Below are positions 22,025-60,075 of a stretch of DNA of 64,000 bases, piece by piece. Position 1 is the stretch's first letter, and the number at the start of each line of letters is the position of its first letter. The notes under the pieces were generated by a model. That model made no database searches. It was given only the letters and a program-made list of their open reading frames with translations, and had not been told where the DNA came from. The DNA is from an uncultured bacterium (GTDB lineage Bacteria; Joyebacterota; Joyebacteria; Joyebacterales; Joyebacteraceae), in assembly GCA_964562405.1 (NCBI GenBank), contig CAZLTC010000005.1, forward strand, positions 3,381 to 67,380. Direction: 5' to 3'. A program made the position numbers and the translations under genes.

Positions 22025-22067
22025 CAGGCGGAAGCGCCGCCTCCGGCGTCCGCGTGGAGGTAGTGGC

Positions 22068-24507: not shown

Positions 24508-24527
24508 CACGCGGGATGGAGTGCCGC

Positions 24528-26183: not shown

Positions 26184-26387
26184 AGCCGCACACACGCGAC
26201 GACACCCGCGGAGCGCGAGCGGGTCCTGCGCGAACAGGGAGATGCGCGGGCACGGCCCGGAGGCGAGACGGGATTCCGGTTGCGCCGACGTCCCAATCTC
26301 TGCGAACATCCACTGATGATCTCTCATTCGGCGCCGCCCACACCGCGGTTCGCCGCTTGGTGGAGACGCGAACGTGGAGGTTGCTCC

Positions 26388-27488: not shown

Positions 27489-27492
27489 CGAC

Positions 27493-28617: not shown

Positions 28618-28628
28618 GGGGCTTAAGG

Positions 28629-29546
28629 ATGCGGCGCGCGTCCGCCGGGCGTCACATCGATCCTCGCTCGCCGCGGGGCTACTACGTCGACCACTCTCGA
28701 GCGGCCGGCCCGACCGCCATCGGCGCGGACGGGCTGCCGGAGCTCAGGAGGCCGGTCGACGGCCACACGCATTCAGCTCTCGAGGTTGCCCGCTGGGGTC
28801 TGGGCAACCTCGAGCTGTACCTGGAGAGCGGAAACACCGCGAGGCGCGACGGGTTCGAGCGCGCCGCGAGGTTCCTCATCGACACCATCGAGGTCGTGCC
28901 CTCCAGCTTCGGGGGCTGGGCCATGCCGCCCGCGCCGCCTCCCTACGGCAGGTTGCTTCCGAGGGGCCATTTCGCCGCAGGTGCGCAGGGCGAGTGTCTG
29001 TCGGTCGTCGTGAGGGCGTGGACGCTGCTCGGCGCCGACGGCGCCGAGCAGACGGCGGACAGGGCCGCCGCCGCACTGGCCGCGCCGATCGCCGATGGAG
29101 GACTTCTGAGGGAGATAGGCGAGCCGACGGGTGTCGCGGGACTCGACTCGCTGGCCTTCCTCGAGGAGTACCCTCTCGAAGAGCGCCCTGTGATGGACTT
29201 GTCGGGACACGTTCGGGGTCTTCTTGGCGTCCACGACTACTGGCTGGCGAGCGGTGATCCCACCGCCGGCTCGCTGCGGGAACGCTGCATTCGGGGCCTG
29301 GCCTTCGTGCTCGACCGGTTCGACCTTGGATACTGGACGCTGGACGACCTCGACGTCGCCGCGCCGGGCCTCAGTCTGTCGAGTCCTTACGCGTTGAGGG
29401 AACACATCTTGCATGCGTTCACCCTGGCCGAGGTATTCAACAGCGAATCGTTTCACGACGCCGCCCTTCGTTGGCGCTCCTATCAAGCGAGCCCGCTGTG
29501 CCGCACCCAGGCCCTCGTGCGCAGAGCGGCCGGTCGCCTGACGTGA
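28629..29546 (+). CDS. D-glucuronyl C5-epimerase C-terminal-domain-like protein (tentative)
   Basis: 305 aa, no signal peptide. Pattern ...ALEVARWGLGNLELYLESGN...GGW...LSGHVRGLLGVHDYWLASGD...LDRFDLGYWTLDDL resembles the (alpha/alpha)-barrel C5-epim_C domain. Assigned from recollection of the family, not from a search. Confidence 0.45.
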   Translation: MRRASAGRHIDPRSPRGYYVDHSRAAGPTAIGADGLPELRRPVDGHTHSALEVARWGLGNLELYLESGNTARRDGFERAARFLIDTIEVVPSSFGGWAMPPAPPPYGRLLPRGHFAAGAQGECLSVVVRAWTLLGADGAEQTADRAAAALAAPIADGGLLREIGEPTGVAGLDSLAFLEEYPLEERPVMDLSGHVRGLLGVHDYWLASGDPTAGSLRERCIRGLAFVLDRFDLGYWTLDDLDVAAPGLSLSSPYALREHILHAFTLAEVFNSESFHDAALRWRSYQASPLCRTQALVRRAAGRLT

Positions 29547-29675
29547 GGCATATCTCCCCCATTGTGAATGTCATTCGTTCCGACTCGACCGCCTGTGGGC
29601 TTTCGCGAGGGCGGGCTTCGTGCTAGATTTCTCGGAACGGTCTTGTGCTGTGGTCCGGTGCCGGAGGTTGGAGGC

Positions 29676-31019
29676 TTGGTCGGACTCGGACAGATTTGGT
29701 GCGCTCTCGCCATGCTCGGCGCCACCGGCGTCGCGTCCTGGCTTCTGATGAAGCCGGCCGCACGCCTCGGGCTGTACCTTGGCCTCGTCGACCTCCCGAG
29801 CACGCGCCGGACCAGGGCGAGACCCATCCCCACCACGGGGGGGCTCGTTGTGTTCGTCGTGTTCATCGCCGCCATGACGATCTCTCTGCGGCTCTGCGGA
29901 GGAGGATTCGAACCAGACGTTCTCGTCAAGTACTCGGCCCTCACAAGCGGCGGCATCGTCATCGTCATACTCGGGATGCTCGATGACCGCTTGAACCTCC
30001 GCCCTCACATCAAGCTGGTCGTACAGACGGCGGTGGCAGTGACGATGGTGGCCTCCGGAGTAGGCATAGAGCACGTCAAGTTCCTCGTCGGGCCGCTTCA
30101 CCATCTCGGCTGGCTCACGTATCCCGTCACCGTCTTCTGGTTCGTTGGATTCATGAACGCCATCAATCTCGTAGACGGCCTCGACGGCCTTGCGGGGGGC
30201 ATTGCCGCCATCGGTGCGGCAGCGCTCTTCGCTGTCGGCGTCATCAATGAGAATGTCCTTCTCTATCTGATGGCGGCCGCCCTGCTGGGAAGCACCGTCG
30301 GCTTCCTGCTGCACAACTTCAGGGAGGGCAACATCTACCTGGGTGATGCGGGAAGCATGGTGCTCGGGTTCTTCCTGGCGGGGGGCTCCGTTGTCGGCGC
30401 CTACGGCGACGGTGCGAGCAACGCGCTCCTGGTTGCGGGCGCGTGCATGGCGATCCCGGCGTTCGACGTCGTGACGACGATCGTCCGGCGCAGCAAGTCG
30501 CACAAGGGAGTGATGACGCCGGACCGCGCTCACACGCACCACCGGCTGATCCGTTTCGGGTTGAACCCGAAGGCGGCCGTCGTGGTGCTCTGGTGCATCA
30601 CGCTCTTCTTCGGCGGGCAGATGCTAGGGCTCGTGGCTTCTCACGGGCTGGTCTACGTGCTGGGGAGCTACGTGGCGGCGGCTGCGGTGGCCAACGTGAT
30701 CGTCGACCAGCACAGGAAGAACACGCGGACGATACAGAGCGACCTCCGGGAGGAGGTCCTCTATCTTGCTGGACTGCCGAGGACGCTCTCCGCGCCCGAC
30801 GCGCACGACGGGATGACGCTCCGCGAACTCATCGTGGCGCAGATCCGCCGCGAGGCCCGGTACCGCAGGCTGGTGAGGGAAGAGAAGAACCCACCGACGG
30901 GCGGCGTGCCCGAGCTTCAGACGGCTCCTCGCGGCCGGTCCTCCGCCGTGCGGTCCCGCGTCCCCGAAGAGGCCGCGGGCGGCCTCCTCACGGAAGATGA
31001 AGACCACCGCGCCGACTGA
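29676..31019 (+). CDS. wecA: Undecaprenyl-phosphate N-acetylhexosamine-1-phosphate transferase (WecA/MraY superfamily) with an about 120-aa hydrophilic C-terminal extension
   Basis: Probable TTG start 8 nt after GGAGG (alternative ATG 29712). ...GLVDLPSTRRTRARPIPTTGGLVVF..., MNAINLVDGLDGLAGG, NIYLGDAGSMVLGF are WecA/MraY signatures. The tail after residue about 360 is charged and non-membrane. Confidence 0.8.
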   Translation: MVGLGQIWCALAMLGATGVASWLLMKPAARLGLYLGLVDLPSTRRTRARPIPTTGGLVVFVVFIAAMTISLRLCGGGFEPDVLVKYSALTSGGIVIVILGMLDDRLNLRPHIKLVVQTAVAVTMVASGVGIEHVKFLVGPLHHLGWLTYPVTVFWFVGFMNAINLVDGLDGLAGGIAAIGAAALFAVGVINENVLLYLMAAALLGSTVGFLLHNFREGNIYLGDAGSMVLGFFLAGGSVVGAYGDGASNALLVAGACMAIPAFDVVTTIVRRSKSHKGVMTPDRAHTHHRLIRFGLNPKAAVVVLWCITLFFGGQMLGLVASHGLVYVLGSYVAAAAVANVIVDQHRKNTRTIQSDLREEVLYLAGLPRTLSAPDAHDGMTLRELIVAQIRREARYRRLVREEKNPPTGGVPELQTAPRGRSSAVRSRVPEEAAGGLLTEDEDHRAD

Positions 31020-36104: not shown

Positions 36105-39100
36105 ATGCGAAGATACCTGCCTGCAGTGACGCTGCTCACGATCCTGCTGCTCGCGAGCGGGGCGTTTCCGAAGACCTACAACACGCCGACGATAGACGGC
36201 CGCGTGCAGCAGAGCGCGAGCGATTGGGACGCGGACGAGCTGGGGGTCGATGATCCGACGGACGACGGGCGGTGGTATCCGAGCGACCCGGACCTCGACG
36301 ACCTGTACGTGACGTGGGACGCCGACAACCTGTACGTGGGCGTCACGACCCAGCGGGGGCCCGGGCAGTACGGCAACGGGTACGTGATCTTCATGGACAT
36401 CGACGGCCAGAACGGCGTTACCGGGGCCACGAGCTTTGCCAGCGCCGACTTCTATCCGCGTAACATATCGTTCAGCACGATGGGGGCGGACGTGGTCGGG
36501 GGTGCGTGGGCAGGTCAGGGGCAGTTCCCGATGAGCATGGACTTCAAGCGCTGCACCGACCCGACCAGCACCACGCTCATGACCGGGGTGACGTATTCCG
36601 CCAATCCCGGCGTCCTGAATTTCGAGTTCGGCATGCCCTGGGACACGATCTTCGGGCTGGGCCAGGGAGTCGTGCCCGCCGGAACGAAGATGCGCTTCAT
36701 AGTCGTGGTTGTGGGTGGAGACGGCTCGGGCGCATACGACGCGATGCCGACGTCGAGCACGGGCGCCGAGTCCAACCCCAGCACGCCGTGGGATGCCAAC
36801 ACCGATCTCGACAACTACTATGAGGTGCTCGTAGACGGCAACGGGGACGGCGTCCCGGACCAGGGATTCCCGTCCGGAGGCTCGATATCAGGTACCGTGA
36901 CGCTCGACGACGAGACCGACCTCGAGACCGTGGTCACCGTCTCGGCCTACCTCGAGGGCGAGCTGACGGGCTCTGACACCACGCCCGCGGGCGGCGGAGC
37001 GTATTCGATAGGACGGCTCCCGGACGGCGACTACGAGGTCACCGCCACGGCGGTCTCCTATCTCGACTCGACGCGTTACGCCACCGTCGTGAGCGAGTCC
37101 GACGAGACCGGTATCGACTTCCTCCTCCAGCGCGTGAACGGCGCCATCGAAGGGCAGGTGGCGCTCTCGGGCGGCCCCGCCACGGACGTGACGGTGACCG
37201 CGTATGACGTAGTCACCGGCGCGACGGCGGGCAGCGGTCCGGCGACGGTAACGGGAGGAACCGGCGCCTTCAGGATCGGGACCGTCCTTGACGGCACGTA
37301 CCGTGTCGAGGCTACGGCCAAGGGCTACGTTGAGCAGGCCGCCCAGGCGGTCGTCGCGCTGGAAGGAACGGCCGATGTAGGTCTCCTCACGCTCCCGGCC
37401 GTGGTGGCCACGAAGTACACGTTCGTCGATTCATCGGGGGCCGAGATCTACAGCGCCGGCACCACCGTCAGCATTCCGGACAGCTCGATCTACTACTTTG
37501 CACACGCGTGGCTCGAGCCGCGAGACGACGACGACCGCGTGGCATACTGGGACACGGCGGTGCAGGAGAGCGTCCTTCTGTCGGCGACCAAGCTTGATCC
37601 GTCCTATCCGCCGAGCGGGACGATCGTCTTCGCCGGTGCGGACAGCATGGAGATGCCGGACTCGACCATCACCGCGGCCATGTTCGACGACGGCAGGGCC
37701 CCGCTGCTGGTGGCCGGGGACGAGATCGAGGTGTTGCGCGTGCTCGCCGCCGGCAACGGTCTGAGCGGCGTGCTCGAGGTCGGCATCGACGCGCCGGCCG
37801 CCACGCGCCTCGCGCTCACGTCGGACATCAGCACCATCGACGTTGGCACCGGGATCGCGCGGATCACCGGTCAACTCATCGATGCCGCTGGCAACGACAC
37901 GAAGATATCTGGCGTCCAGGCAAGCATGACAGCCGGTGGAGCGGGTGGCCTGTTCAGCATCAGCTCGCCGGAGACCGACGCCAACGGCAGGTTCGAACTG
38001 GACTTCTACGGGACGGTCGCGGGCACGACCTACGTGTCGGCGGTGATCGATCCGTCGTCCGAGTACGCGAACCTCGACGTGGACGAGATCGCCATCGTGC
38101 TCGAGCCCGGCGACGCGTCGCTCGTCACGCTCACGGCGACGCCTGCCGCACTCAGAGCCGGGGAGACCGGCGAGATCACGGCCGCCGTCGTCGACGCCTG
38201 GGGCAACTCCGTGGGAATGTCCGGGCTGTCGATTGCGCTCACGTCATCGCCGGTCGGCCTTCTCACGTCGCTTGATACACCTCTCGTAACGGAGGCCGAC
38301 GGTATGGCCAGCGGCTCCGTCACGGCCGGTACCGCCTACGGCATCGTAGAGGTGTCCGGAGCCGCGGCGGGCGTCTCGGTTGAGACCATCTACATTCCCA
38401 TAGACGCTACGATCGTCGCCGTTGACGAGACCGCGCCGGAGTCCGACAACGCGCACAACAGCAACGCCGGGGTCGACCTTACGATCATGCGGGCCACTTC
38501 CGACGCGGAGACGCTCGAGGTCACGCTGGACTTCAGCTCCGACTGGGACGGGGTTCATCTCATGCTCGCGCTCGAGTCCCACGACGACGCGGCGGGTGGC
38601 GCGTCCGACCCGTTCGGCTTCCCGGTCAACTTCGGACACACGCTCCTTCCGGACTACGTCTTCACCTACAAGTATGCCGCGAACGACTACGCCGACCTGA
38701 GACGCTTCTTCGGCGGCCAGTGGGAGCACTACGACTTCGTCAACAAGGAATGGCGAGTCGGCTACATTCCCGAGGTCAACGCTCTGGCTTACGGCTACAT
38801 CGTCCGCGAGCAGGACAAGGTCATATTCCGGATACCTTTCTCCGTGCTCGAAACCGATTTCGGAGACACCGTTCGCGTCGAGGCCTACCTTACGCAGGAG
38901 GCCGACGGCGAGAAGAGGACCGCTCTCGACTCGGTGCCGCAGGACGCCACTCACGACATGGTCCCGGACACGGGAGAGTGGTGGGAGACCGCGACGACGC
39001 CGGTGACGCTCACGAACTACGCCGTTCACGAGATTCTCGTGCCGGGAGATCCTCCGGTGCTCTCCGACGGCACGGCCAGTCCATCGACGGCGCAGCCTGG

Positions 39101-41441
39101 CGATCTCGTGACCTACAGCGTAGGCGTGAGCGATGGCGGCGCCGGCATAGGCGACGTCTTCATCGACCTGTCGGGCGTAGGCGGTCCGTCTTTCCTCCGA
39201 ATGATGGATGACGGGCGCTCTCCCGACGGAGCTGCCGCTGACGGAGTCTATTCTGTGAGTGACACGTTGCGTGCCGGGGCGGCGAACGGTGAGCACACGG
39301 TGTTCGTTACGGCCAGGGATGCTTCGAACGTTTCCGAGGCGAAGCTCGGCATAACCGTCAACGTGGACAACCCCGCGGTCGCGCTCCGCGAGTTCGACGA
39401 TCCGGTCGGGGACGACCACGGACCGGACCAGACGTCTGCGAACGGCACCCCCATCCAGGGTCTGTACTACTACTACCCGACCAACTTCGTGTTCCTACCG
39501 GGATCGTTCGATCTCACGGACGTGGAGATCTTCGCGGACGGCGACTGGCTAGTCTTCCGCGTTCACCTCGACGATCTGGCCAACCACCAGGACGCGGGCT
39601 CGGCGGATTGGGGTGCGCCTCAGCCGAGTGAGCAGACGTGCACCAATCCCTATCGGACGGACCTCAACCTTCAGAAGATAGACATCTACATCGACGCCAG
39701 GGAAGGCGAAGGGGCGACGAGTGGGTTCCCCAACAGGTACGTCGACATCGCCACGGTCGACGCGTGGGACTACGCCATAGCCGTGGAGGGTTGGGGAAAG
39801 TGGTTCGTGAAGTCGAACGGGGAGAACTCGATAGCCAGCTGGTCGCTCTACAAGAACGACAGCGACATAAGTATGTGCGACGACTATGAGAACAATTACG
39901 TCGACGTCCGCGTCGACAGATCGCTCTTCGGACAGGACCTCGACGAGGACAACCTGAGCCTCCTCGAGTGGGACATCATCGTCACGATGGCCTCGCACGA
40001 CGGTGACTCGAGCGACCAGAACCTCGGCGGGACACGCTGGGTGAACGCCAACACGAGCGAGTGGCAGATAGGCGGCGGTCGCGACGGAGAAGCGAGCCGC
40101 GAGCGCGATGCCAACATCATGGACGTCGCGATGTCGCCCGGCGCGAGTCACGAGCCAGGCCGGACTCAGCAGGAGATGCTCGACTACACCACTCCCGAGG
40201 CGGAGCAGCGCTTCGCGGATGACAAGGTCGCCTGCGTGTTGGAGGCCAGTTTCGCGCTCGACACGTCTCCGCCGGTCATAACGCCGCTCAAGTCAGACCC
40301 CGACGTGCGCCACATCCCGTGGGTCGCGCTGGATGAGGCGCCTGCCGTCTTCTGGACGACGATAACCGATGTGTCGGACGTCGACGAGGCAATGTTCTAT
40401 TGGTATCCGGTTGGACTTCCAGCGTTGGTCGACTCTGTGAAGATGGTGAATCTGTATAGCGACATCTGGGCCGGTGACGTCGCCAGGGCGGACATCGTTG
40501 CCCATACTGACGTCGTCGAACAGGTAAAGACGGGCGCCAGCCGCGTCATACTCGGCTCGATCCGGGCGCGTGACGCCTCGTCGAACCACAACCAGATCAA
40601 GACCGTGTTCAAAGAGATCGCTATCCCCGAACCGTGGGCCTCCTCGCAGCGCATCGCCGACGTCGACACCTCATTCGTGGCGGGCGAGGACTACGCGGCG
40701 ATCTTCCAGGACGGCACGCTCCTCGTTCTGGAGCCCGGTCAGGTGGTGCCGGAGGGCGGGCTCGACATCTTGCTCACGCCGGTCGCTCAGAGCCTCGTCG
40801 ACCTCGACAACATTCGCAAGGACATGGCGTTCACCGGCGTTGCGAGGGACGTCCGCCTGGAGACGGGCGACAGGAGCACGGTAGCTCTCAGCGTTCCCGC
40901 GTGGCTCATCATGCACTACCCACAGTACGATGTGGGGGGCCTGAACGAGAACGCATTCGGCGTCTTCGAGTGGAACGAAGAGACGGAGCGCTGGATAGCC
41001 CTCGGAGGAGCGGCGAACAAGAAGGGCAACTCGGTCACATGTGTGGGCCTCGAGCGGCTCGGTCTCTTCGGTCTGTTCGAGTGGGACGCTCTTGACACGG
41101 GCGGCAGCCGCGGACTCTCGGGAGTGCTCGCCGAGCCGAATCCGTTCTCGCCCAACGGCGACGGGCTCTACGACGACATGGTGGTCACGTTCTACATCGG
41201 GAGAGAGGCCGACTACGTCAACATCGAGTTCTACGATCTGGCCGGAGTGCTCGCCAGACGTCTCGTCTTCCAGGATCCGGCCAACTACACGGGGCGCACC
41301 CCGATGCAGGTGGTGTGGGACGGCACGGACATGAACGGCAACGTGGTTCCCTACGGGCTCTACGTGTTGCGCGTAGAGGCCAAGTTCAAGACCGAGCCCA
41401 TCTACGAGCGCGTGAACATACCCGTAGCAGTCATCAAGTAG
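36105..41441 (+). CDS. Giant (1778 aa) secreted multidomain protein. It has an N-terminal CBM9/DOMON-like carbohydrate-binding domain, carboxypeptidase-regulatory-like and Big/Ig-like beta-sandwich repeats, a glucodextranase-C-like domain and a C-terminal T9SS-type/FlgD-Ig-like sorting domain
   Basis: Signal peptide MRRYLPAVTLLTILLLASGAFP. TIDGRVQQSASDWDADELGVDDPTDDGRWY...LYVTWDADNLYVGV (CBM9-like). Repeated GSISGTVTLDD...YEVTATA (CarbopepD_reg-like). LYYYYPTNFVFLPGSFDLTDVEIFADGDWLVFRVHLDDL...IDIYID (shared with the 50256..51032 protein). C-terminus NPFSPNGDGLYDDMVVTFYIGREADYVNIEFYDLAGVLARRLVF...VVWDGTDMNGNVVPYGLYVLRVEA. Confidence 0.8.
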   Translation: MRRYLPAVTLLTILLLASGAFPKTYNTPTIDGRVQQSASDWDADELGVDDPTDDGRWYPSDPDLDDLYVTWDADNLYVGVTTQRGPGQYGNGYVIFMDIDGQNGVTGATSFASADFYPRNISFSTMGADVVGGAWAGQGQFPMSMDFKRCTDPTSTTLMTGVTYSANPGVLNFEFGMPWDTIFGLGQGVVPAGTKMRFIVVVVGGDGSGAYDAMPTSSTGAESNPSTPWDANTDLDNYYEVLVDGNGDGVPDQGFPSGGSISGTVTLDDETDLETVVTVSAYLEGELTGSDTTPAGGGAYSIGRLPDGDYEVTATAVSYLDSTRYATVVSESDETGIDFLLQRVNGAIEGQVALSGGPATDVTVTAYDVVTGATAGSGPATVTGGTGAFRIGTVLDGTYRVEATAKGYVEQAAQAVVALEGTADVGLLTLPAVVATKYTFVDSSGAEIYSAGTTVSIPDSSIYYFAHAWLEPRDDDDRVAYWDTAVQESVLLSATKLDPSYPPSGTIVFAGADSMEMPDSTITAAMFDDGRAPLLVAGDEIEVLRVLAAGNGLSGVLEVGIDAPAATRLALTSDISTIDVGTGIARITGQLIDAAGNDTKISGVQASMTAGGAGGLFSISSPETDANGRFELDFYGTVAGTTYVSAVIDPSSEYANLDVDEIAIVLEPGDASLVTLTATPAALRAGETGEITAAVVDAWGNSVGMSGLSIALTSSPVGLLTSLDTPLVTEADGMASGSVTAGTAYGIVEVSGAAAGVSVETIYIPIDATIVAVDETAPESDNAHNSNAGVDLTIMRATSDAETLEVTLDFSSDWDGVHLMLALESHDDAAGGASDPFGFPVNFGHTLLPDYVFTYKYAANDYADLRRFFGGQWEHYDFVNKEWRVGYIPEVNALAYGYIVREQDKVIFRIPFSVLETDFGDTVRVEAYLTQEADGEKRTALDSVPQDATHDMVPDTGEWWETATTPVTLTNYAVHEILVPGDPPVLSDGTASPSTAQPGDLVTYSVGVSDGGAGIGDVFIDLSGVGGPSFLRMMDDGRSPDGAAADGVYSVSDTLRAGAANGEHTVFVTARDASNVSEAKLGITVNVDNPAVALREFDDPVGDDHGPDQTSANGTPIQGLYYYYPTNFVFLPGSFDLTDVEIFADGDWLVFRVHLDDLANHQDAGSADWGAPQPSEQTCTNPYRTDLNLQKIDIYIDAREGEGATSGFPNRYVDIATVDAWDYAIAVEGWGKWFVKSNGENSIASWSLYKNDSDISMCDDYENNYVDVRVDRSLFGQDLDEDNLSLLEWDIIVTMASHDGDSSDQNLGGTRWVNANTSEWQIGGGRDGEASRERDANIMDVAMSPGASHEPGRTQQEMLDYTTPEAEQRFADDKVACVLEASFALDTSPPVITPLKSDPDVRHIPWVALDEAPAVFWTTITDVSDVDEAMFYWYPVGLPALVDSVKMVNLYSDIWAGDVARADIVAHTDVVEQVKTGASRVILGSIRARDASSNHNQIKTVFKEIAIPEPWASSQRIADVDTSFVAGEDYAAIFQDGTLLVLEPGQVVPEGGLDILLTPVAQSLVDLDNIRKDMAFTGVARDVRLETGDRSTVALSVPAWLIMHYPQYDVGGLNENAFGVFEWNEETERWIALGGAANKKGNSVTCVGLERLGLFGLFEWDALDTGGSRGLSGVLAEPNPFSPNGDGLYDDMVVTFYIGREADYVNIEFYDLAGVLARRLVFQDPANYTGRTPMQVVWDGTDMNGNVVPYGLYVLRVEAKFKTEPIYERVNIPVAVIK

Positions 41442-41456
41442 CAGAGGACGGAGACT

Positions 41457-42329
41457 ATGAAGAGGGCCATCCTAGCTGCAAGCGTCGCCTTCCTGTTGGC
41501 GGGTACGGCCGGCGCGAACTTCCTGGAGGTGGAGGTCGGGGCGCGCGCGATGGGTATGGGAGGCGCGTTCGTGGCCGTGGCCGACGATGTCACGGCGCTC
41601 CACTGGAACCCGGCCGGGCTCGCCGATCTCGAAGGCATCCAGGTTTTCGGAATGAGGACGAGCGTCTACAGTGTCGACGGGCTCTCGGAGGACTCGGTCC
41701 TCGCGGGCTACGGGATGGGGCGACGCGGGATTGCGGCCGGCTGGCTCAGGACGGGAGCTCAGGACCTCTATCATGAGGACACGCTGGTTGCGGGCTACGG
41801 GATGAAGACGCCCATCGACGGGCTGTCGGCGGGGCTCTCGGTGAAGCGCTACTCCATCGCCGCTCCCGGTTACGAGTACTACAACGACCCGAACTTCGAC
41901 ACCGGAGGCGACGCGGCATTCTCGGGCGACGTCGGAGTCCTCTACCGCAGTGGGAGCTGGTCGGCCGGGGCCACCTACAGGAACATCGGCGAGCCGACGC
42001 TCCAGCTCATCTCCACCACGCAGGATCCCGACCCGATCGTCGGCGAGTTCAGGGTCGGCGGTTCCTACGTCTTCCGCGAGGTCATGACCATCTCGGGGGA
42101 GTGGAGGGTTCCGAGCGAGGTGCCCTCCTACTACGACAGCGCCGGCAGCTTCAATCTGGGGACCGAGGTGTGGTTCTACGACGTATTCGCGCTGCGGGCG
42201 GGTATGAACAGGGACAGGATCACCGCGGGTCTGGGCCTCAAGGCCGACCCGGTGAGGATCGACGTCGCGCTTCTCTCGGAGCGCAGGATCGGGAGTCTCT
42301 ACAGGCTGTCCGCGATCCTAACCTGGTAA
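41457..42329 (+). CDS. Small (290 aa) outer-membrane beta-barrel of the FadL-like superfamily, possibly a PorP/SprF- or PorQ-like T9SS accessory protein
   Basis: Signal peptide MKRAILAASVAFLLAGTAGA. N-terminal ARAMGMGGAFVAVADDVTALHWNPAGLADL (FadL-type NPA motif). Amphipathic beta-strands; C-terminal ...LYRLSAILTW. 15 nt downstream of the giant CTD protein, a SprB-SprF-like order. Confidence 0.55.
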   Translation: MKRAILAASVAFLLAGTAGANFLEVEVGARAMGMGGAFVAVADDVTALHWNPAGLADLEGIQVFGMRTSVYSVDGLSEDSVLAGYGMGRRGIAAGWLRTGAQDLYHEDTLVAGYGMKTPIDGLSAGLSVKRYSIAAPGYEYYNDPNFDTGGDAAFSGDVGVLYRSGSWSAGATYRNIGEPTLQLISTTQDPDPIVGEFRVGGSYVFREVMTISGEWRVPSEVPSYYDSAGSFNLGTEVWFYDVFALRAGMNRDRITAGLGLKADPVRIDVALLSERRIGSLYRLSAILTW

Positions 42330-42386: not shown

Positions 42387-43961
42387 GTGATCCGAACGGG
42401 CAGGGAGTGGTCGATCAGGAGAGGAGCGGTCTTCCTTGCCGTTCTTCTGCTAGCGACGACCGCGGGGAGCGCCGCGGCCGTCACCACGCTCGAGGGCTAC
42501 TCCGAGCTCATGACGGAGATCCGTTCGAGTGGCGGAGGGGACCCGAGTTGGGACCTCAACAATCCGAAGCTCTACGCAGAGCTTCGGCTCAAGGCGAGCC
42601 CGTGGCAGGGTGTCGACAGCTTCCTCAAGATCTCCGCCGAGTCGAATCGCTGGACAGACGATATGAAGGACACGAAGTTCTTCTTCCGCGAGGCGCACAT
42701 GCACTACAGGGCGGAGCGCTTCGAGACCTACCTCTTCAGCGGCCAGGACAGGTTCTGGCTCAACGAACCGCTCCTGGAGATCGTGAACACTGGCGTCGTG
42801 AAGAACGACGACTACGGCCCCAGGGCGCAGGGCATCCGCATGGACTTCTGGCAGGTCAAGGGCTTCACGGGCGCGGCGTTCATGAGCGAGAGGAGCGACT
42901 ACATCTCGGCTCCGTGGTCCTCGCTATCCGAGTCCGAGCAGGCGGTCCATCCCGGCTCGACCGTGGGCGACACTCTCTCGAGCAGCACCGACGACTACCG
43001 TGGCCTGCGTCTCACGCGCGACTTCATGAGCAACAGGATCTATCTGGGCGGGACCTACGCGCGCAAGGACTACAGCTCCTCCGCATACAAGGGGGAGTCG
43101 CAGAGCTTCGACGAGGTCACGGCGTTCGATGCGGAGTTCGCGCTGGGAGAAATCATCCCCGTACTGCAGCAGTTCGGGCGCGTTACCTGGGTAAGCGAGT
43201 TCGGGGTCAACTCGTCGGGCTACCTCTGGAACGCCGAGGATCCCAGCAGGAACGGGTTCAAGACGGAGCTTCGCGACATGAGGGTCGGCCCGTTCCGCGT
43301 CAACGGCTCGTTCGAGGAGTACGGGAAGGACTTCTACACGGTCGGACTCGCATCCGGCGACAAGAACAACCTGAACGACTACACGCAGTACTACGGCGAG
43401 GGACACTACCGGCTCCCGACCAAGGCCATCAACCTCAAGGGGTGGATACGGCACGCTGCGCCGAACAATCCCGGAGTCACCAGTTACTCGAACTCCGTGG
43501 GCACGGTCGACGAATGGGGGACCGAGACCTACGTGGAGTTCGTGAACGGCTTCACGGGGAGGGCCGAGTACAAGCTCTACGAGGATGACAACGGAAGGTG
43601 GCCGAACCTGTTCTTCGAGGCCACCGGAGAGAACCGCCTCGTGAAGCTGCGCACCCAGTTCCGTGTGAAGGACATCGGAACCGTCTATGAGCTCACCGCG
43701 TACGGTTTCGAAGCCAACGTCAACCTCACCGACAACTGGCAGTTCTATGCACGTATCCTCAACGTCGATGAGAAGACGGAGTCTCGGCAGACGGCCTTCG
43801 CGCAGATTCGATATCTTGGATGGACCGGCGCCGAGTTCTTCGTCGAGTTCGGCAATCCGGACCAGAGCAATGACCTCGTGAACGACGGGGACTTCGTGCA
43901 GCACGGGAGCGGCAACACGACGGAGCAGGTGTTCAAGGCTTTCCTGAAGATATACTACTAG
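42387..43961 (+). CDS. Outer-membrane beta-barrel protein (porin-like, 524 aa), paralogous to the barrel part of 44065..46206
   Basis: GTG start after AAGGAG; signal peptide ...VFLAVLLLATTAGSAAA. Alternating-hydrophobic strands with many Y/W/G; C-terminal ...EQVFKAFLKIYY (aromatic terminus typical of OMP beta-barrels). Confidence 0.6.
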   Translation: MIRTGREWSIRRGAVFLAVLLLATTAGSAAAVTTLEGYSELMTEIRSSGGGDPSWDLNNPKLYAELRLKASPWQGVDSFLKISAESNRWTDDMKDTKFFFREAHMHYRAERFETYLFSGQDRFWLNEPLLEIVNTGVVKNDDYGPRAQGIRMDFWQVKGFTGAAFMSERSDYISAPWSSLSESEQAVHPGSTVGDTLSSSTDDYRGLRLTRDFMSNRIYLGGTYARKDYSSSAYKGESQSFDEVTAFDAEFALGEIIPVLQQFGRVTWVSEFGVNSSGYLWNAEDPSRNGFKTELRDMRVGPFRVNGSFEEYGKDFYTVGLASGDKNNLNDYTQYYGEGHYRLPTKAINLKGWIRHAAPNNPGVTSYSNSVGTVDEWGTETYVEFVNGFTGRAEYKLYEDDNGRWPNLFFEATGENRLVKLRTQFRVKDIGTVYELTAYGFEANVNLTDNWQFYARILNVDEKTESRQTAFAQIRYLGWTGAEFFVEFGNPDQSNDLVNDGDFVQHGSGNTTEQVFKAFLKIYY

Positions 43962-44064: not shown

Positions 44065-46206
44065 ATGAAGCCAGGACGCTGTTCGGTACTCGCAATGGCC
44101 ACCGCGGCGCTGCTCCTTCTGGGGGTGAGCGCCGCCTTGTCCGACGTGGCCGTCGTGGACGGCGGGATAGAATTCAGCTACGACGACCAGTACGCTGGGA
44201 GCGTCAGCCTCGCGGGCGACTTCAACAACTGGAGCATGGACGCCACGCCGCTCACGCTGGGAGAGGACGGTGTGTGGAGGGTGGTCTACGACCTGGGCCC
44301 GGGCTCGTACGAATACAAGTTCGTCGTCAACGGCTCAGAATGGATAGCCGACCCCGGCAACACGGTAGTCGTGGGCGACTACGGAAACTCCGGTCTGACG
44401 ATCGACGACAGCGGCGAGATAGTTGTCTCGGGGGGCGCCGCGGCGATATCGAACACGACGGTCAACTCGCGCGTGAAGATCAGCGGGTGGTACAGGGCGA
44501 CCTACAACACACAGTCGGATGTGCCGAGCGACCCGCGGTGGAGGCTGAACCGCCCGGAGCACGAGTTCTACATCGGGGTCGATCCGACCGTGAACAAGCA
44601 GGTCTCCGGGAGCGCAATGCTTCATCTCTCGACGGGCTCCGGCGACATCAAGGAGATCCACGCCGACATCTACAGCGGACACCTCACGTTCCAGGGCGGG
44701 CCGTTCAGCGTGATAGGCTGGTACAACGAGGAGGACGTGCAGTTCGACAATCCCCTCGAGTACGTCGGCCACACCGACCTCAGAGGCACGATCCCCGAGG
44801 AGCACATCCCGTTCGGCCGCGGCGCACAGGGCGTGAACCTCAAGACGGCCCCTTGGGGCTTCGACCTCACCGCCGTGTACGCGAACCAGTACGATCTGAA
44901 CATCTACAACAACCCCTCGATCTATGACAACACCGACACCGACCTCCTGGCGGCCCGGCTCAAGAGGCAGGCGGGCCCGGCCATGATCGGCGTGACGTAC
45001 GCGGCACACATCGACGGGTGGTGGATGAACTGGGCCGGCACTAACGAGAGCCCGCAGCTCAGCGAGTACATCGCGGAGAGCGGCAGCACCAGTGACTGGT
45101 TCGAGCTCTCCAACACCGAGCGTCTCATGGGTGTCGACGTCGACCTCCCGCTGGCTTCCGACATGTTCGACGTGAAGGCCGAGTATGCCCTCTATAGTTA
45201 CAACGGGCTGTGGGACATGGGCAACCGCGAGAAGGTCGAGGGAGAGGACTACTCGAACGGGGCCATAGACGTTCCGTTCGGCGACACCGACGGCTGGGTC
45301 GCACGCGGGGTTGTGGACGTCTCCACGCTCAAGCCGCTCGACCTCAAGCTCGAGGCAACACGATTCTCGCTCGACGGCATGGCCTACGATGAGGAGTTCG
45401 TCTCCTTCAGCGGTCCGATCTGGTGGAACGACTTCGGCCCGACGGTTCAGTCCGAGCCGTTCCCGGGAGCGGCGATCCGCCAGTACACGGAGGTCAAGTA
45501 CGCGGGCTCGCCCCTCATCGTCAACGTCTACGGGCCCCTCCCCGAGTACAAGAGCTGGGACTTTGAGCTCGAGGCCGGGTTCGGCCTTGGCATCTTCGAC
45601 ATGGGGCTCGAGTACGACAGGTACAGCTTCGAGGGCACGTTCATAGACTCCCTCGAGTGGCTGATGGGCCCGGGTGACTTCGACGGGTCGAGCCAGCGCA
45701 TCGCGGGAACGGCGAAGGCCGACATCCTTCCCGATAAGTTCGAGGTCGGGTTCGATTTCGAGTCGCTTACCCACGATTTGAACATGGGCAGCGAACTGGA
45801 GGAGGGTATCGGCTGGAGCAAGCCGATCGACACGTTCGAGGCCATTCTGTCAGGGCGCTACGAGTTCATCGAGAACTGGGGCGTGATGGCCAACCTCCGC
45901 CGTATCACGTACAACGATGTTCCGACTGTCTCCGCGTCCAGGGACTCCGTGACGTACGACGACAAGAGCTTCTTCGCCCCCTACGTGGCTCTCGTGTACA
46001 GCCCCAGGCCCAACATCGAGGTCCGGCTGGGATACGGCGTCGACCCGACTAACTACGTAGACACCCCCGTCGAAGGCCGGGGCAACGGGCGTGAGCGCTG
46101 GCGTTCGCAGTACCTCTGGGAGCACAGCGCGTACGACGTCATCGACGCGGAGAAGGCGCTCGAGAACGCCCGCACAATAGGCGTGATGGCCGTCATTTCG
46201 TTCTAG
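44065..46206 (+). CDS. Outer-membrane beta-barrel protein fused to an N-terminal CBM48 / AMPK-beta-type glycogen-binding domain (713 aa)
   Basis: ATG 44065 after GGAG; signal peptide MKPGRCSVLAMATAALLLLGVSAALS. GGIEFSYDDQYAGSVSLAGDFNNWSMDATPLTLGEDGVWRVVYDLGPGSYEYKFVVNGSEWIADPGN matches the CBM48 consensus (F.Y....A..V.LAG.FNNW....PL...DG.W.......G.YEYKF.V.G.W..DP.N). Then about 600 aa of beta-strand-rich sequence ending ...TIGVMAVISF. Confidence 0.65.
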   Translation: MKPGRCSVLAMATAALLLLGVSAALSDVAVVDGGIEFSYDDQYAGSVSLAGDFNNWSMDATPLTLGEDGVWRVVYDLGPGSYEYKFVVNGSEWIADPGNTVVVGDYGNSGLTIDDSGEIVVSGGAAAISNTTVNSRVKISGWYRATYNTQSDVPSDPRWRLNRPEHEFYIGVDPTVNKQVSGSAMLHLSTGSGDIKEIHADIYSGHLTFQGGPFSVIGWYNEEDVQFDNPLEYVGHTDLRGTIPEEHIPFGRGAQGVNLKTAPWGFDLTAVYANQYDLNIYNNPSIYDNTDTDLLAARLKRQAGPAMIGVTYAAHIDGWWMNWAGTNESPQLSEYIAESGSTSDWFELSNTERLMGVDVDLPLASDMFDVKAEYALYSYNGLWDMGNREKVEGEDYSNGAIDVPFGDTDGWVARGVVDVSTLKPLDLKLEATRFSLDGMAYDEEFVSFSGPIWWNDFGPTVQSEPFPGAAIRQYTEVKYAGSPLIVNVYGPLPEYKSWDFELEAGFGLGIFDMGLEYDRYSFEGTFIDSLEWLMGPGDFDGSSQRIAGTAKADILPDKFEVGFDFESLTHDLNMGSELEEGIGWSKPIDTFEAILSGRYEFIENWGVMANLRRITYNDVPTVSASRDSVTYDDKSFFAPYVALVYSPRPNIEVRLGYGVDPTNYVDTPVEGRGNGRERWRSQYLWEHSAYDVIDAEKALENARTIGVMAVISF

Positions 46207-46223: not shown

Positions 46224-47003
46224 TTGAGACCAAACAGGACTCTCACGATCGGTAGAGTGGCCGCGCTGGTCGCGCTCGCGGCGGTCGCCGCCGGCCTCGT
46301 CTCTTGCGCGGCCGTGCTCGGTGCGATCGAGGACCGTCTGCCTCCGCCCGAGGAGGTGAAGGGTGGGTTCATCTTCCGTTACTACGCTCCCTCGGCGCGC
46401 CAGGTCACCCTCGCCGGCAGCTTCAACAACTGGGGTGGAACGAAGGGCGGCGGGCGATACGACCCAGGGATCGACCCGATGTCGGACCCCGACGGCGACG
46501 GTGTCTGGTCGATCGTGGTCCCGCTTGCCCCCGGCAGATACCAGTACAAGTTCGTGATCGACGGCGGCACACGCTGGGAGGAGGATCCCAACAACCTCGA
46601 CACGGGTACGGAGGACGGGATCGAGAACTCCCTCGTGATCGTCCCGCCTACGGTGAAGTACGCCTACGAGGCCGTCACGGGAACCGTCGTCAGCGGTGAG
46701 ACGCGCCCGGCGGCGGCCGAGGCGGCATCGAGCGTGACGGCGGCCTCGGTCGACGTCGACATCACGGCGGATCTCCCCGACGCGAAGGAGGTCTACGTCG
46801 CCGGAGACTTCAACGACTGGGCGCCCACGCAGTACAAGATGGAGAAGAACGAGGACGGCGTCTTTCACGTCACGCTGACGCTCGCTCCGGGCACATACGA
46901 GTACAAGCTCATCGTCGACGGCACATGGGTCGAAGACCCGGATAACCCGAACACGGTTCCGGACCCGTATGGAGGAGTGAACTCCGTCCTGACGGTGAAG
47001 TAG
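46224..47003 (+). CDS. Surface lipoprotein with two tandem CBM48 glycogen/starch-binding domains (SusE/SusF-like role)
   Basis: TTG start; lipobox ...AAGLVSCAA. Domain 1 GGFIFRYYAPSARQVTLAGSFNNWGGT...DGDGVWSIVVPLAPGRYQYKFVIDGGTRWEEDPNN. Domain 2 VDVDITADLPDAKEVYVAGDFNDWAPTQYKMEKNEDGVFHVTLTLAPGTYEYKLIVDGTWVEDPDNP. Confidence 0.7.
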   Translation: MRPNRTLTIGRVAALVALAAVAAGLVSCAAVLGAIEDRLPPPEEVKGGFIFRYYAPSARQVTLAGSFNNWGGTKGGGRYDPGIDPMSDPDGDGVWSIVVPLAPGRYQYKFVIDGGTRWEEDPNNLDTGTEDGIENSLVIVPPTVKYAYEAVTGTVVSGETRPAAAEAASSVTAASVDVDITADLPDAKEVYVAGDFNDWAPTQYKMEKNEDGVFHVTLTLAPGTYEYKLIVDGTWVEDPDNPNTVPDPYGGVNSVLTVK

Positions 47004-47081: not shown

Positions 47082-48068
47082 ATGCCAGGTCGCAGATCAA
47101 AGGTTCTAGCATCCGCCAAGGTGAGCAACGCCTCCGGCCTCGCAACCGGCCGGGGGCGTGCGCACTTGAGGGACAACCTCGTCTCATACTCATTCCTGGC
47201 GCCGTTCCTCATCATATTCGCCGTCTTCCTGGCGTACCCTGTCTTCTACTCGCTCTACCTCGCTCTCCACAGGGTGCCGTCCGACTCGTTCGACATCTTC
47301 GGAGGGCTGGTCTTCGTCGGGTTCGACAACTTCGCGCGGCTGTTCGCCGACACGCGGTTCTGGTGGTCGGTCCTCATGACCCTCTATTACGCTGCGCTCA
47401 TCATACCCTCAGGCATCGCGGCGTCGCTCGTGCTGGCGCTTCTCTTGAACAACAGACTCAAGGCGGTCGCCGTCTACAGAAGCGCGTTCTTCATGCCCTA
47501 CGTTCTCGACATGCTCGTCGTGGGCATTGTCTGGACGCTCATCTACAGCCCGCACGTGGGCATTCTCGTGAGGATCCTCGAGAGCGTAGGCATCTCGACG
47601 TTCACGGAGAAGGGCTTCCTCGGGATGACCGCATCGGCTATGCCTTCCGTCGTTCTGGCCAACGTGCTCAAGGGCGCCGGCTTCGGCATGATCCTCTACC
47701 TGTCGGCCATACAGAACATCCCGAGGTCGCTATACGAAGCGGCTCAGATAGACGGTGCGACAGCCTGGCAGCAGTTCAGGAGCATCACGCTGCCGCTGGT
47801 CAAGCCCATCACCTTCTTCATGGTCATAATAGGCACCATCAGCGCGCTGAACGCCTTCGCGGAGGTTTACGCGATGACCAGCGGCGGGCCGAACGTTGAC
47901 GTGGGAGGCAAGGCGCTCGGGGCCACGTGGGTCACCGGCTACTACGTCTTCGACACGTTCTACAACCAGTTCAGGCTGGGCTATGCCGCGGCGATGTCGT
48001 ACGTTCTTCTTGCGCTGACACTCGTGATCACGCTCGTGAACAGGCGGTTCTTGAGCACCGAGGCATGA
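47082..48068 (+). CDS. Sugar ABC transporter permease (MalF/UgpA-like)
   Basis: 6 TM; EAA-type loop ...YLSAIQNIPRSLYEAAQIDGATAWQQFRSITLPLVKP is typical of carbohydrate uptake (CUT1) family permeases. Confidence 0.85.
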   Translation: MPGRRSKVLASAKVSNASGLATGRGRAHLRDNLVSYSFLAPFLIIFAVFLAYPVFYSLYLALHRVPSDSFDIFGGLVFVGFDNFARLFADTRFWWSVLMTLYYAALIIPSGIAASLVLALLLNNRLKAVAVYRSAFFMPYVLDMLVVGIVWTLIYSPHVGILVRILESVGISTFTEKGFLGMTASAMPSVVLANVLKGAGFGMILYLSAIQNIPRSLYEAAQIDGATAWQQFRSITLPLVKPITFFMVIIGTISALNAFAEVYAMTSGGPNVDVGGKALGATWVTGYYVFDTFYNQFRLGYAAAMSYVLLALTLVITLVNRRFLSTEA

Positions 48069-48077: not shown

Positions 48078-48923
48078 ATGCGCCAGGAGACCGTGTTGAA
48101 CAGACGTGAAGTCAGCATCATCAGGAGGGTGATCCTCTATGTCGGCCTCACGGTTGCCGCCGCCGTCGTGCTGTTCCCGTTCTTCTGGATGGTCGTGACG
48201 GCCTTCAAGGAGCCGGGCCACGCCTTCACGACCGAGATCCTCCCTGCGCATCCCACGCTGGAGAACTTCCGGCGCGTCCTGTCGGAGTACGGCTTCGCCA
48301 AGTACTTCCTGAACAGCGTCATAGTGGCCACCACGGCCGCGGTCTTCGCGACCCTGTTCGCCACGCTCTCGGGTTACGTCTTCGCCAAGAAGCATTTCTG
48401 GGGAAAGGACCGGGTCTTCGGCTTCCTCCTGGCCTCGCTCATGATCCCGGGCATGATGTACGTGGTTCCTCAGTTCGCCATCATCAACAGACTCGGCTGG
48501 ATGAATACCTACCAGGCGATGATCGTGCCGCACCTGGCCAACGTATTCGGGCTGTTCCTCATGCGGCAGTACATGATGACCATTCCGTCCGAGCTTCTGG
48601 AGGCGGCCAAGATCGACGGGGCCGGAGAGTGGCAGGTCTTCAGGACGATAATGGTGCCTCTCTCGGTGCCGATCATCGCCACTCTGTTCCTGCTGACGTT
48701 CCAGTTCCACTGGAACAACTTCCTGTGGCAACTCATTGTGACGAACGTCGAGCGGCTCTACACCGTCCCGGTGGGCCTGGCGATGTTCAAGAGCGCCCAC
48801 GAGGAACTCTACACGCTCAAGATGGCGGGTTCCTGCATCTCAGTAATACCCATAGCCATCCTCTTCTTCTTTGCGCAGCGCTACTTCATAGAGGGCATGA
48901 CGATGGGTGCCGTCAAAGGTTGA
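48078..48923 (+). CDS. Sugar ABC transporter permease (MalG/UgpE-like)
   Basis: ...LMRQYMMTIPSELLEAAKIDGAGEWQVFRTIMVPLSVP is the EAA motif region of MalG-like permeases. 9 nt after the first permease. Confidence 0.85.
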   Translation: MRQETVLNRREVSIIRRVILYVGLTVAAAVVLFPFFWMVVTAFKEPGHAFTTEILPAHPTLENFRRVLSEYGFAKYFLNSVIVATTAAVFATLFATLSGYVFAKKHFWGKDRVFGFLLASLMIPGMMYVVPQFAIINRLGWMNTYQAMIVPHLANVFGLFLMRQYMMTIPSELLEAAKIDGAGEWQVFRTIMVPLSVPIIATLFLLTFQFHWNNFLWQLIVTNVERLYTVPVGLAMFKSAHEELYTLKMAGSCISVIPIAILFFFAQRYFIEGMTMGAVKG

Positions 48924-60068: not shown

Positions 60069-60075
60069 GCCGTGG

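Follow-up and report, generated by a model that had tools for sequence, protein, structure and literature searches.

The secretion system of type IX (T9SS) has been described as confined to the Bacteroidota or to the Fibrobacteres-Chlorobi-Bacteroidetes (FCB) superphylum (PMC12618676, PMC11205867). Among the C-terminal domains (CTDs, here also called tails) of its cargo proteins, those of type A all use the general protein PorV (PMC12618676), which binds type-A tails and tethers PorU, while PorQ tethers PorZ, the CTD region of PorZ having been suggested to mediate the binding to PorQ (PMC5562754). In Flavobacterium johnsoniae every cargo of type B depends on a cognate SprF-like shuttle, whose gene usually lies directly downstream (PMC12618676); SprF binds SprB, and PorP binds PG1035 (PMC9143113). 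Here we analysed a stretch of 64,000 nucleotides from an uncultured bacterium assigned to the Joyebacterota (GenBank assembly GCA_964562405.1, contig CAZLTC010000005.1, positions 3,381 to 67,380). This whole stretch is called the window; its own positions are used for all its features, and those of the pair, of the glucan operon, of the arrangement at 58374..60948 and of the protease gene described below lie on the forward (+) strand. In the window, the gene of a secreted surface protein of 1778 aa (36105..41441, hereafter the giant) is followed by the gene of an outer-membrane barrel of 290 aa (41457..42329, hereafter the barrel). The initial annotation of the locus had proposed a T9SS-type cargo with a dedicated partner of the PorP/SprF family. 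From sequence and by analogy with the systems above, we think with moderate confidence that giant and barrel are a cognate pair of a cargo and its shuttle or anchor, similar to PorZ-PorQ or to SprB-SprF, and that the pair would display a glucan-capture protein at the cell surface.

The coordinates of the two open reading frames (ORFs) proved exact: both open with ATG, both lie in the same frame and 15 nt separate them, with a GGAG-type ribosome-binding site 5' of the ATG of the barrel and no terminator-like site between the two genes or between any of the genes of their operon. The G+C content at third codon positions (GC3) was 0.85 for the giant and 0.88 for the barrel, values typical of genuine genes in this window of 65% GC. 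Signal-peptide-like starts were seen on both proteins: a putative Sec signal peptide at aa 1-22 of the giant (MRRYLPAVTLLTILLLASGAFP, 36105..36170), recognized from features of the translation, and another at aa 1-20 of the barrel (41457..41516), with the predicted cleavage between AGTAGA and NF, a region where the AlphaFold model of the barrel places a helix (aa 2-12) of low predicted local distance difference test (pLDDT).

Comparison of the barrel with the public profiles pointed to the PorV/PorQ superfamily. The family model NF033709 (PorV_fam) gave a full-length alignment, in which aa 17-277 of the barrel pair with positions 1-313 of the 326 in the model, at 87.3 bits (E = 1.4e-24; cutoff 90). 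The PorV and PorQ equivalog models matched its N-terminal segment only (NF033710, 35.2 bits, cutoff 250; NF033711, 26.9 bits, cutoff 220), the PorVQ2 model NF052325 gave 48.7 bits (cutoff 325) and the Pfam PorV model 21.4 bits (cutoff 27). The sole public model that the barrel passed was TraF_2 (PF13729; 28.7 bits, gathering threshold (GA) 25), a partial match (aa 124-215, model positions 157-251 of 264) to a family whose name says nothing on function. A profile of 32 orthologs searched against the Protein Data Bank (PDB) had as its top sequence PorV of F. johnsoniae (6h3i_F), matched in three collinear pieces that comprise the N-terminal NPA hatch, the middle and the C-terminal strands. This hatch or plug with its FadL/PorV-type NPA motif (aa 23-57, LEVEVGARAMGMGGAFVAVADDVTALHWNPAGLAD, 41523..41627) was invariant across the 32 orthologs, conserved through a family alignment of 40 sequences and aligned to PorV residues 28-81; the motif GMGGAFVAVADDVTALHWNPAGLA and the C-terminal W, both pointed out in the initial annotation, were indeed present. 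The AlphaFold model (pLDDT 79, predicted template-modelling score 0.78) has 14 strands and an N-terminal plug segment, and the top Foldseek matches were FadL, TodX and CymD (E = 2e-9, query-normalised TM-score 0.67), a likeness at the fold level only, as the Toluene_X model of the FadL/TodX family (PF03349) gave 18.6 bits (GA 29.7). On these sequence and model grounds we place the barrel in the PorV/PorQ superfamily, as a short and divergent member whose predicted fold is of the FadL type, with 14 strands and the NPA hatch at the N-terminus.

The family proposed at first for the barrel did not hold. If the barrel were a member of PorP/SprF and the giant a cargo with a type-B CTD, the two would form a true SprB-SprF pair, and such a reading has in its favour that the gene order is the one known for type-B cargo and sprF-like genes (PMC12618676), that the barrel shows weak matches to PorP_SprF (PF11751; 19.6 bits, GA 22.3) and to TIGR03519 (19.2 bits, cutoff 90.55), and that two of its orthologs carry the NCBI name PorP/SprF. 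Both scores are nevertheless far under their cutoffs when set against 87.3 bits over the full length for PorV/PorQ, and ten diverse relatives of the barrel all scored best on PorV_fam (42-73 bits, compared with 22-27 bits on PorP/SprF), so that PorP/SprF membership was rejected on the profile scores. Orthologs of the barrel from the glucan cassettes of other phyla (described below) reached 65-68 bits on PorV_fam, and two paralogs from Candidatus Eisenbacteria, at loci L044 and L074, exceeded its cutoff with 159.6 and 181.6 bits, each being encoded directly 3' of its own CTD cargo. We regard a true SprB-SprF pair as very unlikely.

The CTD of the giant (aa 1678-1778, 41136..41438) is a β-sandwich of the sorting type that runs from PNPFSPNGDG to VAVIK, and it had been read as a T9SS or FlgD-Ig tail. 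The FlgD_ig and CHU_C (PF13585) models gave 20.7 bits each (GA 27), TIGR04131 (type B) gave 15.3 bits (cutoff 35) and TIGR04183 (type A, cutoff 23 bits) gave no match, so that the tail stays below the cutoffs of the families first named for it. It was recovered by a hidden Markov model (HMM) seeded with 11 tails from other phyla, each of them over the TIGR04183 cutoff, which in its first pass over the C-termini of 1954 ORFs detected the tail of the giant with E = 1.3e-9. The same HMM found two more tails in the window, one in a Lamin-tail-domain (LTD) protein (E = 5.9e-16) and one in a protease (E = 5.2e-17), and no further window ORF below E = 50. We conclude from this homology that the tail of the giant is a divergent relative of the type-A sorting domains. 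The type-B reading can claim that PNPFSPNGDG resembles the type-B opening motif and that TIGR04131 is the only T9SS model matching this tail, yet its 15.3 bits against a cutoff of 35 compare poorly with the type-A homology. Between the giant and its orthologs in Eisenbacteria the tail is the best-conserved part, with 52-87% identity compared with 31-72% in the cargo body, and the barrel shows 53-83%. This co-conservation of tail and barrel suggests, and does not prove, a lasting interaction of the two.

Ahead of the tail the giant is built of several modules. The N-terminal one (aa 23-255, 36171..36869), kept among orthologs and of unassigned family, was initially described as CBM9/DOMON-like, a description we could not sustain, as it had no Pfam match at E ≤ 0.1 and a PDB search with a 14-sequence ortholog profile of aa 1-270 returned nothing meaningful. 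Two β-sandwich domains similar to CarboxypepD_reg follow (aa 260-422, 36882..37370), and here the earlier reading was correct: PF13620 matched two stretches with 47.9 bits (GA 32.3), the best being aa 260-341, and the NF052345 alignment spans aa 256-422. The Ig-like repeats (aa 586-758, 37860..38378) were also seen, at scores that stayed under GA (20 bits for Big_1, 22.4 bits for Invasin_D3). A choice-of-anchor X domain (choice_anch_X, NF041940; 28.7 bits, cutoff 25) occupies aa 1031-1070 (39195..39314), and the glucodextranase-C-like domain that had been predicted is a clear Glucodextran_C domain at aa 1096-1366 (39390..40202; PF09985, E = 1.7e-32, 113 bits, GA 22). The paralogy proposed between this domain and the protein encoded at 50256..51032 stands at the level of the family, both being Glucodextran_C, while direct BLASTP between the two copies was weak (E = 7e-5, 31% over 93 aa). 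No catalytic domain was detected in the giant with Pfam and NCBIfam, and its sequence had no match at E ≤ 1 among PDB sequences. Its orthologs, of 1764-1851 aa, occupy the same position in other metagenome-assembled genomes (MAGs) of Eisenbacteria. At one locus (L005, 5000..10000) the giant gene 5' of the barrel appears interrupted, or short ORFs and ORFs on the opposite strand stand in its place; a second contig with the same barrel carries an intact giant gene, and the break is possibly an assembly problem.

All barrel homologs with organism names came from MAGs of Candidatus Eisenbacteria, the group to which the genome of the window also belongs; the best 120 homologs were 66-100% identical to the barrel and 282-302 aa long, with one exception of 506 aa, and the orthologs in this range of identity were invariably encoded 3' of the giant gene. 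The family is much wider than these orthologs: an exhaustive search among cluster representatives matched 10,528 of them at E ≤ 1e-3, of which 924 reached E ≤ 1e-10, and proteins of 280-320 aa with about 30% identity were numerous. Scanning GTDB, one genome per species, with the family alignment as query yielded 542 relatives, and the best 80 of the 542 were taken as loci; HMMs built in the course of this work identified 95 ORFs with a CTD tail and 88 barrels among the 1954 ORFs. A total of 82 barrels, from about 15 phyla, had 600 nt or more of readable DNA on their upstream side, and for 64 of these a CTD gene ended directly upstream (at most 500 nt away), a count that is uncorrected for phylogeny and taken over loci that are not independent, about 25 of them being orthologs of the glucan operon. 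Outside this orthologous operon the CTD gene was upstream in 39 of 57 barrels and only directly downstream in three more; the background frequency of CTD-tailed ORFs was 4.9%. The loci came from Eisenbacteria, Krumholzibacteriota, Zixibacteria, WOR-3, Elusimicrobia, Ignavibacteria, Calditrichota, Marinimicrobia, Stahlbacteria, Firestonebacteria, Desantisbacteria, Poribacteria, Omnitrophota, Sumerlaeota and FCPU426, together with some MAGs labelled Clostridia, Bacillota or Thermotogae.

On differing bodies the paired tails repeat one pattern (PNPF..., IxIYDxxGxLVRxL, WDGxDxxGxxVxxGxYxY and GKxxVIK), and they fall into 30 clusters with less than 50% identity between clusters. At E ≤ 1e-4, 19 of the 30 representatives matched TIGR04183, 17 the PorU tail, 15 the PorZ tail and four TIGR04131, a balance of 19 type-A to four type-B matches that also runs against a type-B origin of the pair in the window. 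The bodies tested include M6-like proteases, glycanases, nuclease-like proteins and unassigned families, and LTD proteins also occur. We considered that the pairs could simply be porU-porV or porZ-porQ, and rejected it, since the 19 barrel-adjacent CTD proteins in question matched the PorU or PorZ models in their tails only. The barrels cluster according to cargo type and not to genome: three barrels of one Ignavibacteria locus were 28-32% identical to one another and 37-76% identical to barrels of the same cargo type elsewhere, including MAGs labelled Zixibacteria, Marinimicrobia and Stahlbacteria. The dedicated coupling of cargo and barrel, as in SprB-SprF, that the initial annotation had suggested for this one locus is hence upheld, and more generally than proposed. 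Gene order, conservation across genomes and specificity for cargo type are all those of a cognate cargo-shuttle pair as judged at the sequence level.

One could argue instead that the barrel is a FadL-type channel for glucan uptake, or the single general PorV of its host, and that it adjoins the giant through operon packing. The closest folds are in fact the FadL, TodX and CymD channels, and conservation extends from the barrel to the whole glucan cassette, with two further putative outer-membrane proteins among its products, so that operon synteny alone cannot pick out the giant as the partner. Relatives of the barrel, however, follow 30 unrelated types of CTD cargo, such as M6-like, glycanase and LTD proteins, without glucan genes nearby, and they group per cargo type; this diversity makes chance or pure operon packing untenable as the explanation of the pairing. 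A single general PorV is contradicted by the several Eisenbacteria paralogs, each with its own cargo, and by the score of 35 against 250 on the PorV equivalog. FadL-type channels, moreover, carry hydrophobic substrates and not glucans. We consider the channel or general-PorV explanation clearly improbable.

Other arrangements were seen in the barrel family. Several loci hold more than one barrel paralog (L073, at 2886..3893, 7917..8864 and 9726..10673, as well as L062, L078, L079, L085 and L086), and in such loci there is a third barrel type with no tailed gene upstream. Fused members occur at L033 (3506..5590), L034, L056, L040 (5382..9464), L052, L064 and L070, for example a 694-aa PorV_fam barrel continued by TPR repeats, others being of 576-1360 aa. 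In five FCPU426 loci (L041, L043, L047, L072 and L077) the barrel follows a gene for an UvrA-like ATP-binding cassette (ABC) ATPase, an exception to the pairing. In Calditrichota (L049, 6022..10458) the family member is a true PorV by NF033710 (263.5 bits, cutoff 250) and adjoins a protein scoring 584.8 bits (cutoff 600) on the model of the T9SS-dependent M6-like inactivated metalloprotease, while in Eisenbacteria L044 (4655..8867) a PorV_fam barrel comes after a related M6-like protein with a CTD; the M6-like protease and its barrel may thus be a widely conserved pair. A 532-aa Eisenbacteria barrel at L074 (15216..16814, minus strand) has a weak match to the BamG family (49.8 bits, cutoff 250), and BamG of Bacteroides (9hiv_F) was also among the Foldseek matches of the barrel in the window, a hint that the partner barrels of surface proteins belong to a broader family with the FadL fold.

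The genes around the pair agree with the starch or glycogen context initially assumed. In Eisenbacteria MAGs the operon comprises genes for pyruvate phosphate dikinase, for a membrane protein of the ferredoxin type and for a Sir2 deacylase, then those for the giant (there of 1764-1781 aa) and the barrel, for a protein of about 500 aa (486-520) without family, for a CBM48 protein of about 700 aa with the module at its N-terminus and for a 260-aa double-CBM48 protein, and finally those for two ABC permeases, a solute-binding protein, a 258-aa Glucodextran_C protein and a GH57 enzyme that carries CBM48 modules. Synteny of the full operon extends to MAGs with a barrel as little as 66% identical; one copy, 82% identical, lies on a 194-kb contig of GCA_043815815.1. 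The window has the identical gene set, followed by a GDE_C amylo-alpha-1,6-glucosidase. The first of the genes after the barrel (42387..43961) encodes an exported protein of 524 aa that ends in KIYY and has no Pfam, NCBIfam or PDB match. It always lies 3' of the barrel, a place that is kept in Eisenbacteria, Krumholzibacteriota and one Zixibacteria MAG, and its signal peptide and aromatic C-terminus make it a candidate outer-membrane protein. Next comes a protein of about 713 aa, with its start put at M30, an N-terminal CBM48 and a large β-rich C-terminal part ending in VISF (44065..46206); CBM_48 and AMPK1_CBM were above GA, TonB_dep_Rec_b-barrel gave 21 bits, below GA, AMPK-beta CBMs were matched in the PDB, and the orthologs have 683-706 aa. 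A 259-aa protein with two CBM48 modules (46224..47003) is recognized by the Pfam annotation of its orthologs, by NCBIfam matches to the GlgB N-terminal domain and by a GC3 of 0.85; one CBM48-like segment of it matched the NCBIfam model named T9SS plug protein with 25.7 bits (cutoff 100), probably through shared domain similarity.

The importer and the enzymes complete the operon. Two ABC permeases (47082..48068 and 48078..48923, each with BPD_transp_1) and a solute-binding protein (48976..50208; SBP_bac_1, SBP_bac_8) are followed by the stand-alone Glucodextran_C protein of 258 aa (50256..51032; PF09985, E = 1.2e-35, with a GC3 of 0.81 from 50256), by a GH57 enzyme with two CBM48 modules (51167..53608, from Pfam) and by the GDE_C protein, an amylo-alpha-1,6-glucosidase (53731..56121, also from Pfam). 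With CBM48 proteins, a MalEFG-like ABC importer, GH57 and GDE_C as neighbours, the setting of the pair is a locus for the capture and uptake of alpha-glucan (starch or glycogen). The five genes of the outer-membrane side (giant, barrel, the protein of about 520 aa, the CBM48 protein and the double-CBM48 protein) also occur together in Krumholzibacteriota and in one Zixibacteria MAG, the cassette having been found in the window and at loci L022-L027, L029 and L084, and they resemble a Sus-type apparatus for capturing starch that lacks SusC and SusD. Elsewhere in the window, 10307..31019 is a large exopolysaccharide or capsule cluster, which includes a 965-aa Wza/EpsE-like exporter, genes similar to those for chain-length determinants, flippases, heparinase II/III and C5-epimerase, glycosyltransferases, an UDP-GlcNAc 2-epimerase and a DegT aminotransferase; further genes encode isocitrate/isopropylmalate-type enzymes, a vWA-like membrane protein and a ComEA-like protein.

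A second copy of the arrangement had been indicated at 58374..60948, and its first half was borne out more firmly than its second. The cargo there (58374..60068; LTD 108.8 bits) is the LTD protein already mentioned, whose tail (about 59775..60065) opens with PNPFTPNGDG and thus shares the PNPF[ST]PNGDG subtype with that of the giant. The public models gave it FlgD_ig 24.8 and CHU_C 18.4 bits, both below GA, TIGR04131 19.4 bits and TIGR04183 15.7 bits. The gene downstream, of 290 aa as NCBI calls it (protein P0279, 60076..60948), encodes only a weak member of the barrel family. It had just three homologs (90, 47 and 36% identity), no Pfam or NCBIfam match and no BLASTP similarity to the first barrel; the family HMM aligned with it collinearly (model positions 109-279 of 280) at E = 3.4e-5 among the 1954 ORFs, and the homologs show a degenerate AAFE..ARAAGMA motif at the N-terminus and a SITFSW end. 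Its AlphaFold model, from four sequences in the alignment, is all-β with 14 strands and of low confidence (pLDDT 51), the Foldseek matches were weak porins at E ≥ 0.02, and the model can be read only as β-barrel-like. From synteny and the family HMM we take it to be, probably, a barrel of this superfamily that has diverged strongly. The LTD protein, the small gene and a protein of about 673 aa with the HHH_3 family motif form a trio conserved at 36% identity; this last protein (60869..62890), whose gene always comes after those of the other two, has a signal peptide, a ComEA-like helix-hairpin-helix motif (HHH_3) and a long β-rich C-terminal part.

The third tailed protein of the window is a subtilisin-like protease (8419..10227) with a type-A-like CTD (TIGR04183, 22.7 bits, cutoff 23). 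No barrel follows it, the next gene being the Wza-like exporter, and the window holds in this way its own contrast: each PNPF[ST]PNGDG tail is followed by a small gene, and the protease, with a different tail, is not. The comparison of the three tails of the window with types A and B, which had been advised at the outset, left all three under the type-A cutoff and those of the giant and the LTD protein also under the type-B cutoffs, the tails of paired cargo across the loci being mostly type-A-like.

Placing these results into a model, the gene logic of the type-B or SprF-like pairs and the PorV/PorQ family of the barrel lead to the following sequence of capture. The giant would be a Sec-exported, non-catalytic surface protein of the conserved alpha-glucan operon, and would pass through the outer membrane on a route of the T9SS type. 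Its private PorV/PorQ-like barrel would capture its tail, and would hold the giant at the cell surface or deliver it there. Once displayed, the giant and the CBM48-bearing outer-membrane proteins may capture alpha-glucan for degradation by GH57 and GDE and import through the ABC system. Physical binding, surface display, retention of the tail, T9SS dependence and glucan binding by the giant are steps that we infer from sequence.

Several observations weigh against this proposal. Its support throughout is gene order and homology, and of the T9SS core, which would have to supply a translocon for the 1778-aa cargo, no sprA/sov, porK/L/M/N or porU gene was present in the window or in the Eisenbacteria flanks, which were read up to 10 kb on either side of the matched genes, three Eisenbacteria paralog loci included, the flanks of L044 and L074 holding a sigma-54 regulator, DegP, an amidase, RsgA, TrpE and the weak BamG-like barrel. 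The tail of the giant itself passes none of the public T9SS tail models, and the barrel misses the PorV_fam cutoff by 2.7 bits and both equivalog cutoffs by a wide margin. Glucan binding by the giant is suggested by its Glucodextran_C domain and the neighbourhood alone. Finally, 18 of the 82 barrels have no CTD gene upstream, for instance in FCPU426, Poribacteria and Omnitrophota, and the shared ancestry of the loci, already stated with the counts, lessens the weight of the pairing.

The missing core genes raise the question whether giant and barrel could be a self-contained display module, in which the barrel alone would capture and anchor the cargo, export taking place by another route or through a partner complex of the barrel. 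Such a module would predate the T9SS of Bacteroidota or exist apart from it. Pairs were found under the MAG labels Elusimicrobia, Poribacteria (chromosome OZ244829.1), Desantisbacteria, Firestonebacteria, Sumerlaeota and WOR-3, where tails still pass TIGR04183, while the literature confines the T9SS to the Bacteroidota or the FCB superphylum (PMC12618676, PMC11205867). On the other hand, a plugged barrel of 14 strands is an implausible conduit for a folded protein of 1778 aa, and the homologs of tail and barrel act downstream of SprA/Sov wherever they have been tested. The absence of core genes, besides, is that of the window and flanks and not of whole genomes; the taxonomic labels of the MAGs may be wrong, some loci being labelled Clostridia or Thermotogae; and the Calditrichota family member is a true PorV (263.5 against 250), from which we take it that a complete T9SS probably exists in at least some of these phyla outside the Bacteroidota. 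On balance we find a T9SS-independent module unlikely. The same holds, with a similarly small probability, for its broader form, an ancient modular unit of surface display spread over at least 15 phyla, including non-FCB lineages such as Elusimicrobia, Poribacteria, Desantisbacteria, Firestonebacteria and WOR-3, for at least some of which the SprA/PorKLMN core would be dispensable. Were it true, the T9SS of Bacteroidota would be one elaboration of a broader sorting system and not its origin.

Returning to the cognate pair that we favour, its interest goes beyond the window. The initial annotation had thought such a pair notable outside the Bacteroidota; the pair does lie outside them, where this arrangement turned out to be common and not exceptional. 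Type-A-related tails are linked by gene order to private barrels of the PorV/PorQ family, as ancient, co-inherited pairs, in Eisenbacteria and in many uncultured phyla. We found no paper describing the pairing of a tailed cargo with a PorV-like barrel, and, for Eisenbacteria and further candidate phyla, nothing relevant in the literature on a T9SS or on PorV, so that tailed cargo with a private barrel is a widespread and apparently undescribed pattern. The NCBIfam models NF052325 (putative type IX sorting system protein PorV2) and NF052323 (T9SS-dependent M6-like inactivated metalloprotease) do exist, which means that curators have already noticed further PorV-like proteins, and cargo dependent on the T9SS, beyond the classical repertoire. 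If the barrels bind the tails of their cargo, the principle of a specialised shuttle or anchor would reach the PorV/PorQ branch and much of the uncultured bacteria, a CTD gene followed by a barrel of about 300 aa would serve as an annotation rule for surface-displayed proteins, and the operon of the window would be a candidate for surface capture of starch or glycogen by non-Bacteroidota bacteria of FCB type. The pairs also sharpen a testable question, namely which phyla possess the T9SS translocon.

Among known systems, the SusCDEFG system of Bacteroidota resembles the operon of the window in grouping the genes of glucan-binding surface proteins, outer-membrane proteins, glucan hydrolases and an importer; the operon differs in having no SusC or SusD homologs, in its CBM48 and Glucodextran_C binding modules, in its ABC-type uptake and in its enzymes, GH57 and GDE_C. 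The FadL, TodX and CymD channels share with the barrel the plugged fold of 14 strands and the NPA motif in the N-terminal segment, whereas the barrel is linked to tailed secreted proteins and not to hydrocarbon or fatty-acid genes. The case of NF052325 and NF052323 is approached by Eisenbacteria L044, where an M6-like CTD cargo precedes a PorV-family barrel, while the barrel in the window stays at 48.7 bits against the cutoff of 325 and its cargo is a protein of the glucan operon. PorV, the general shuttle (F. johnsoniae 6H3I and the 8GL6 series), is the best sequence match of the barrel among solved structures, but it has about 400 aa, is single-copy and general, whereas the barrel has 290 aa, is linked to one cargo and has paralogs.

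PorQ-PorZ and PorV-PorU of Porphyromonas gingivalis (PMC5562754) are alike in that a PorV/PorQ-family barrel of FadL fold holds a surface protein, and the PorU and PorZ tails are matched by 17 and 15 of the 30 representatives of paired tails. Their partners, unlike the giant, are components of the machine and not nutrient-capture cargo, and the barrel in the window is about 50-100 aa shorter than PorQ and PorV, fails both equivalog cutoffs and belongs to a host outside the Bacteroidota. To our knowledge, porQ and porZ are not adjacent in P. gingivalis. The closest resemblance in gene organization is to the type-B pairs SprB-SprF, Fjoh_3952-Fjoh_3951 and PG1035-PorP (PMC12618676, PMC9143113), with a large tailed cargo followed by a small barrel, one private barrel per cargo, several pairs per genome and the barrel as surface anchor; the difference lies in the barrel being of the PorV/PorQ and not the PorP/SprF family (87 against 19 bits) and in the tails being type-A-related. 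Set against the rule that type-A tails use the general PorV (PMC12618676), the type-A-like tails described here have private barrels.

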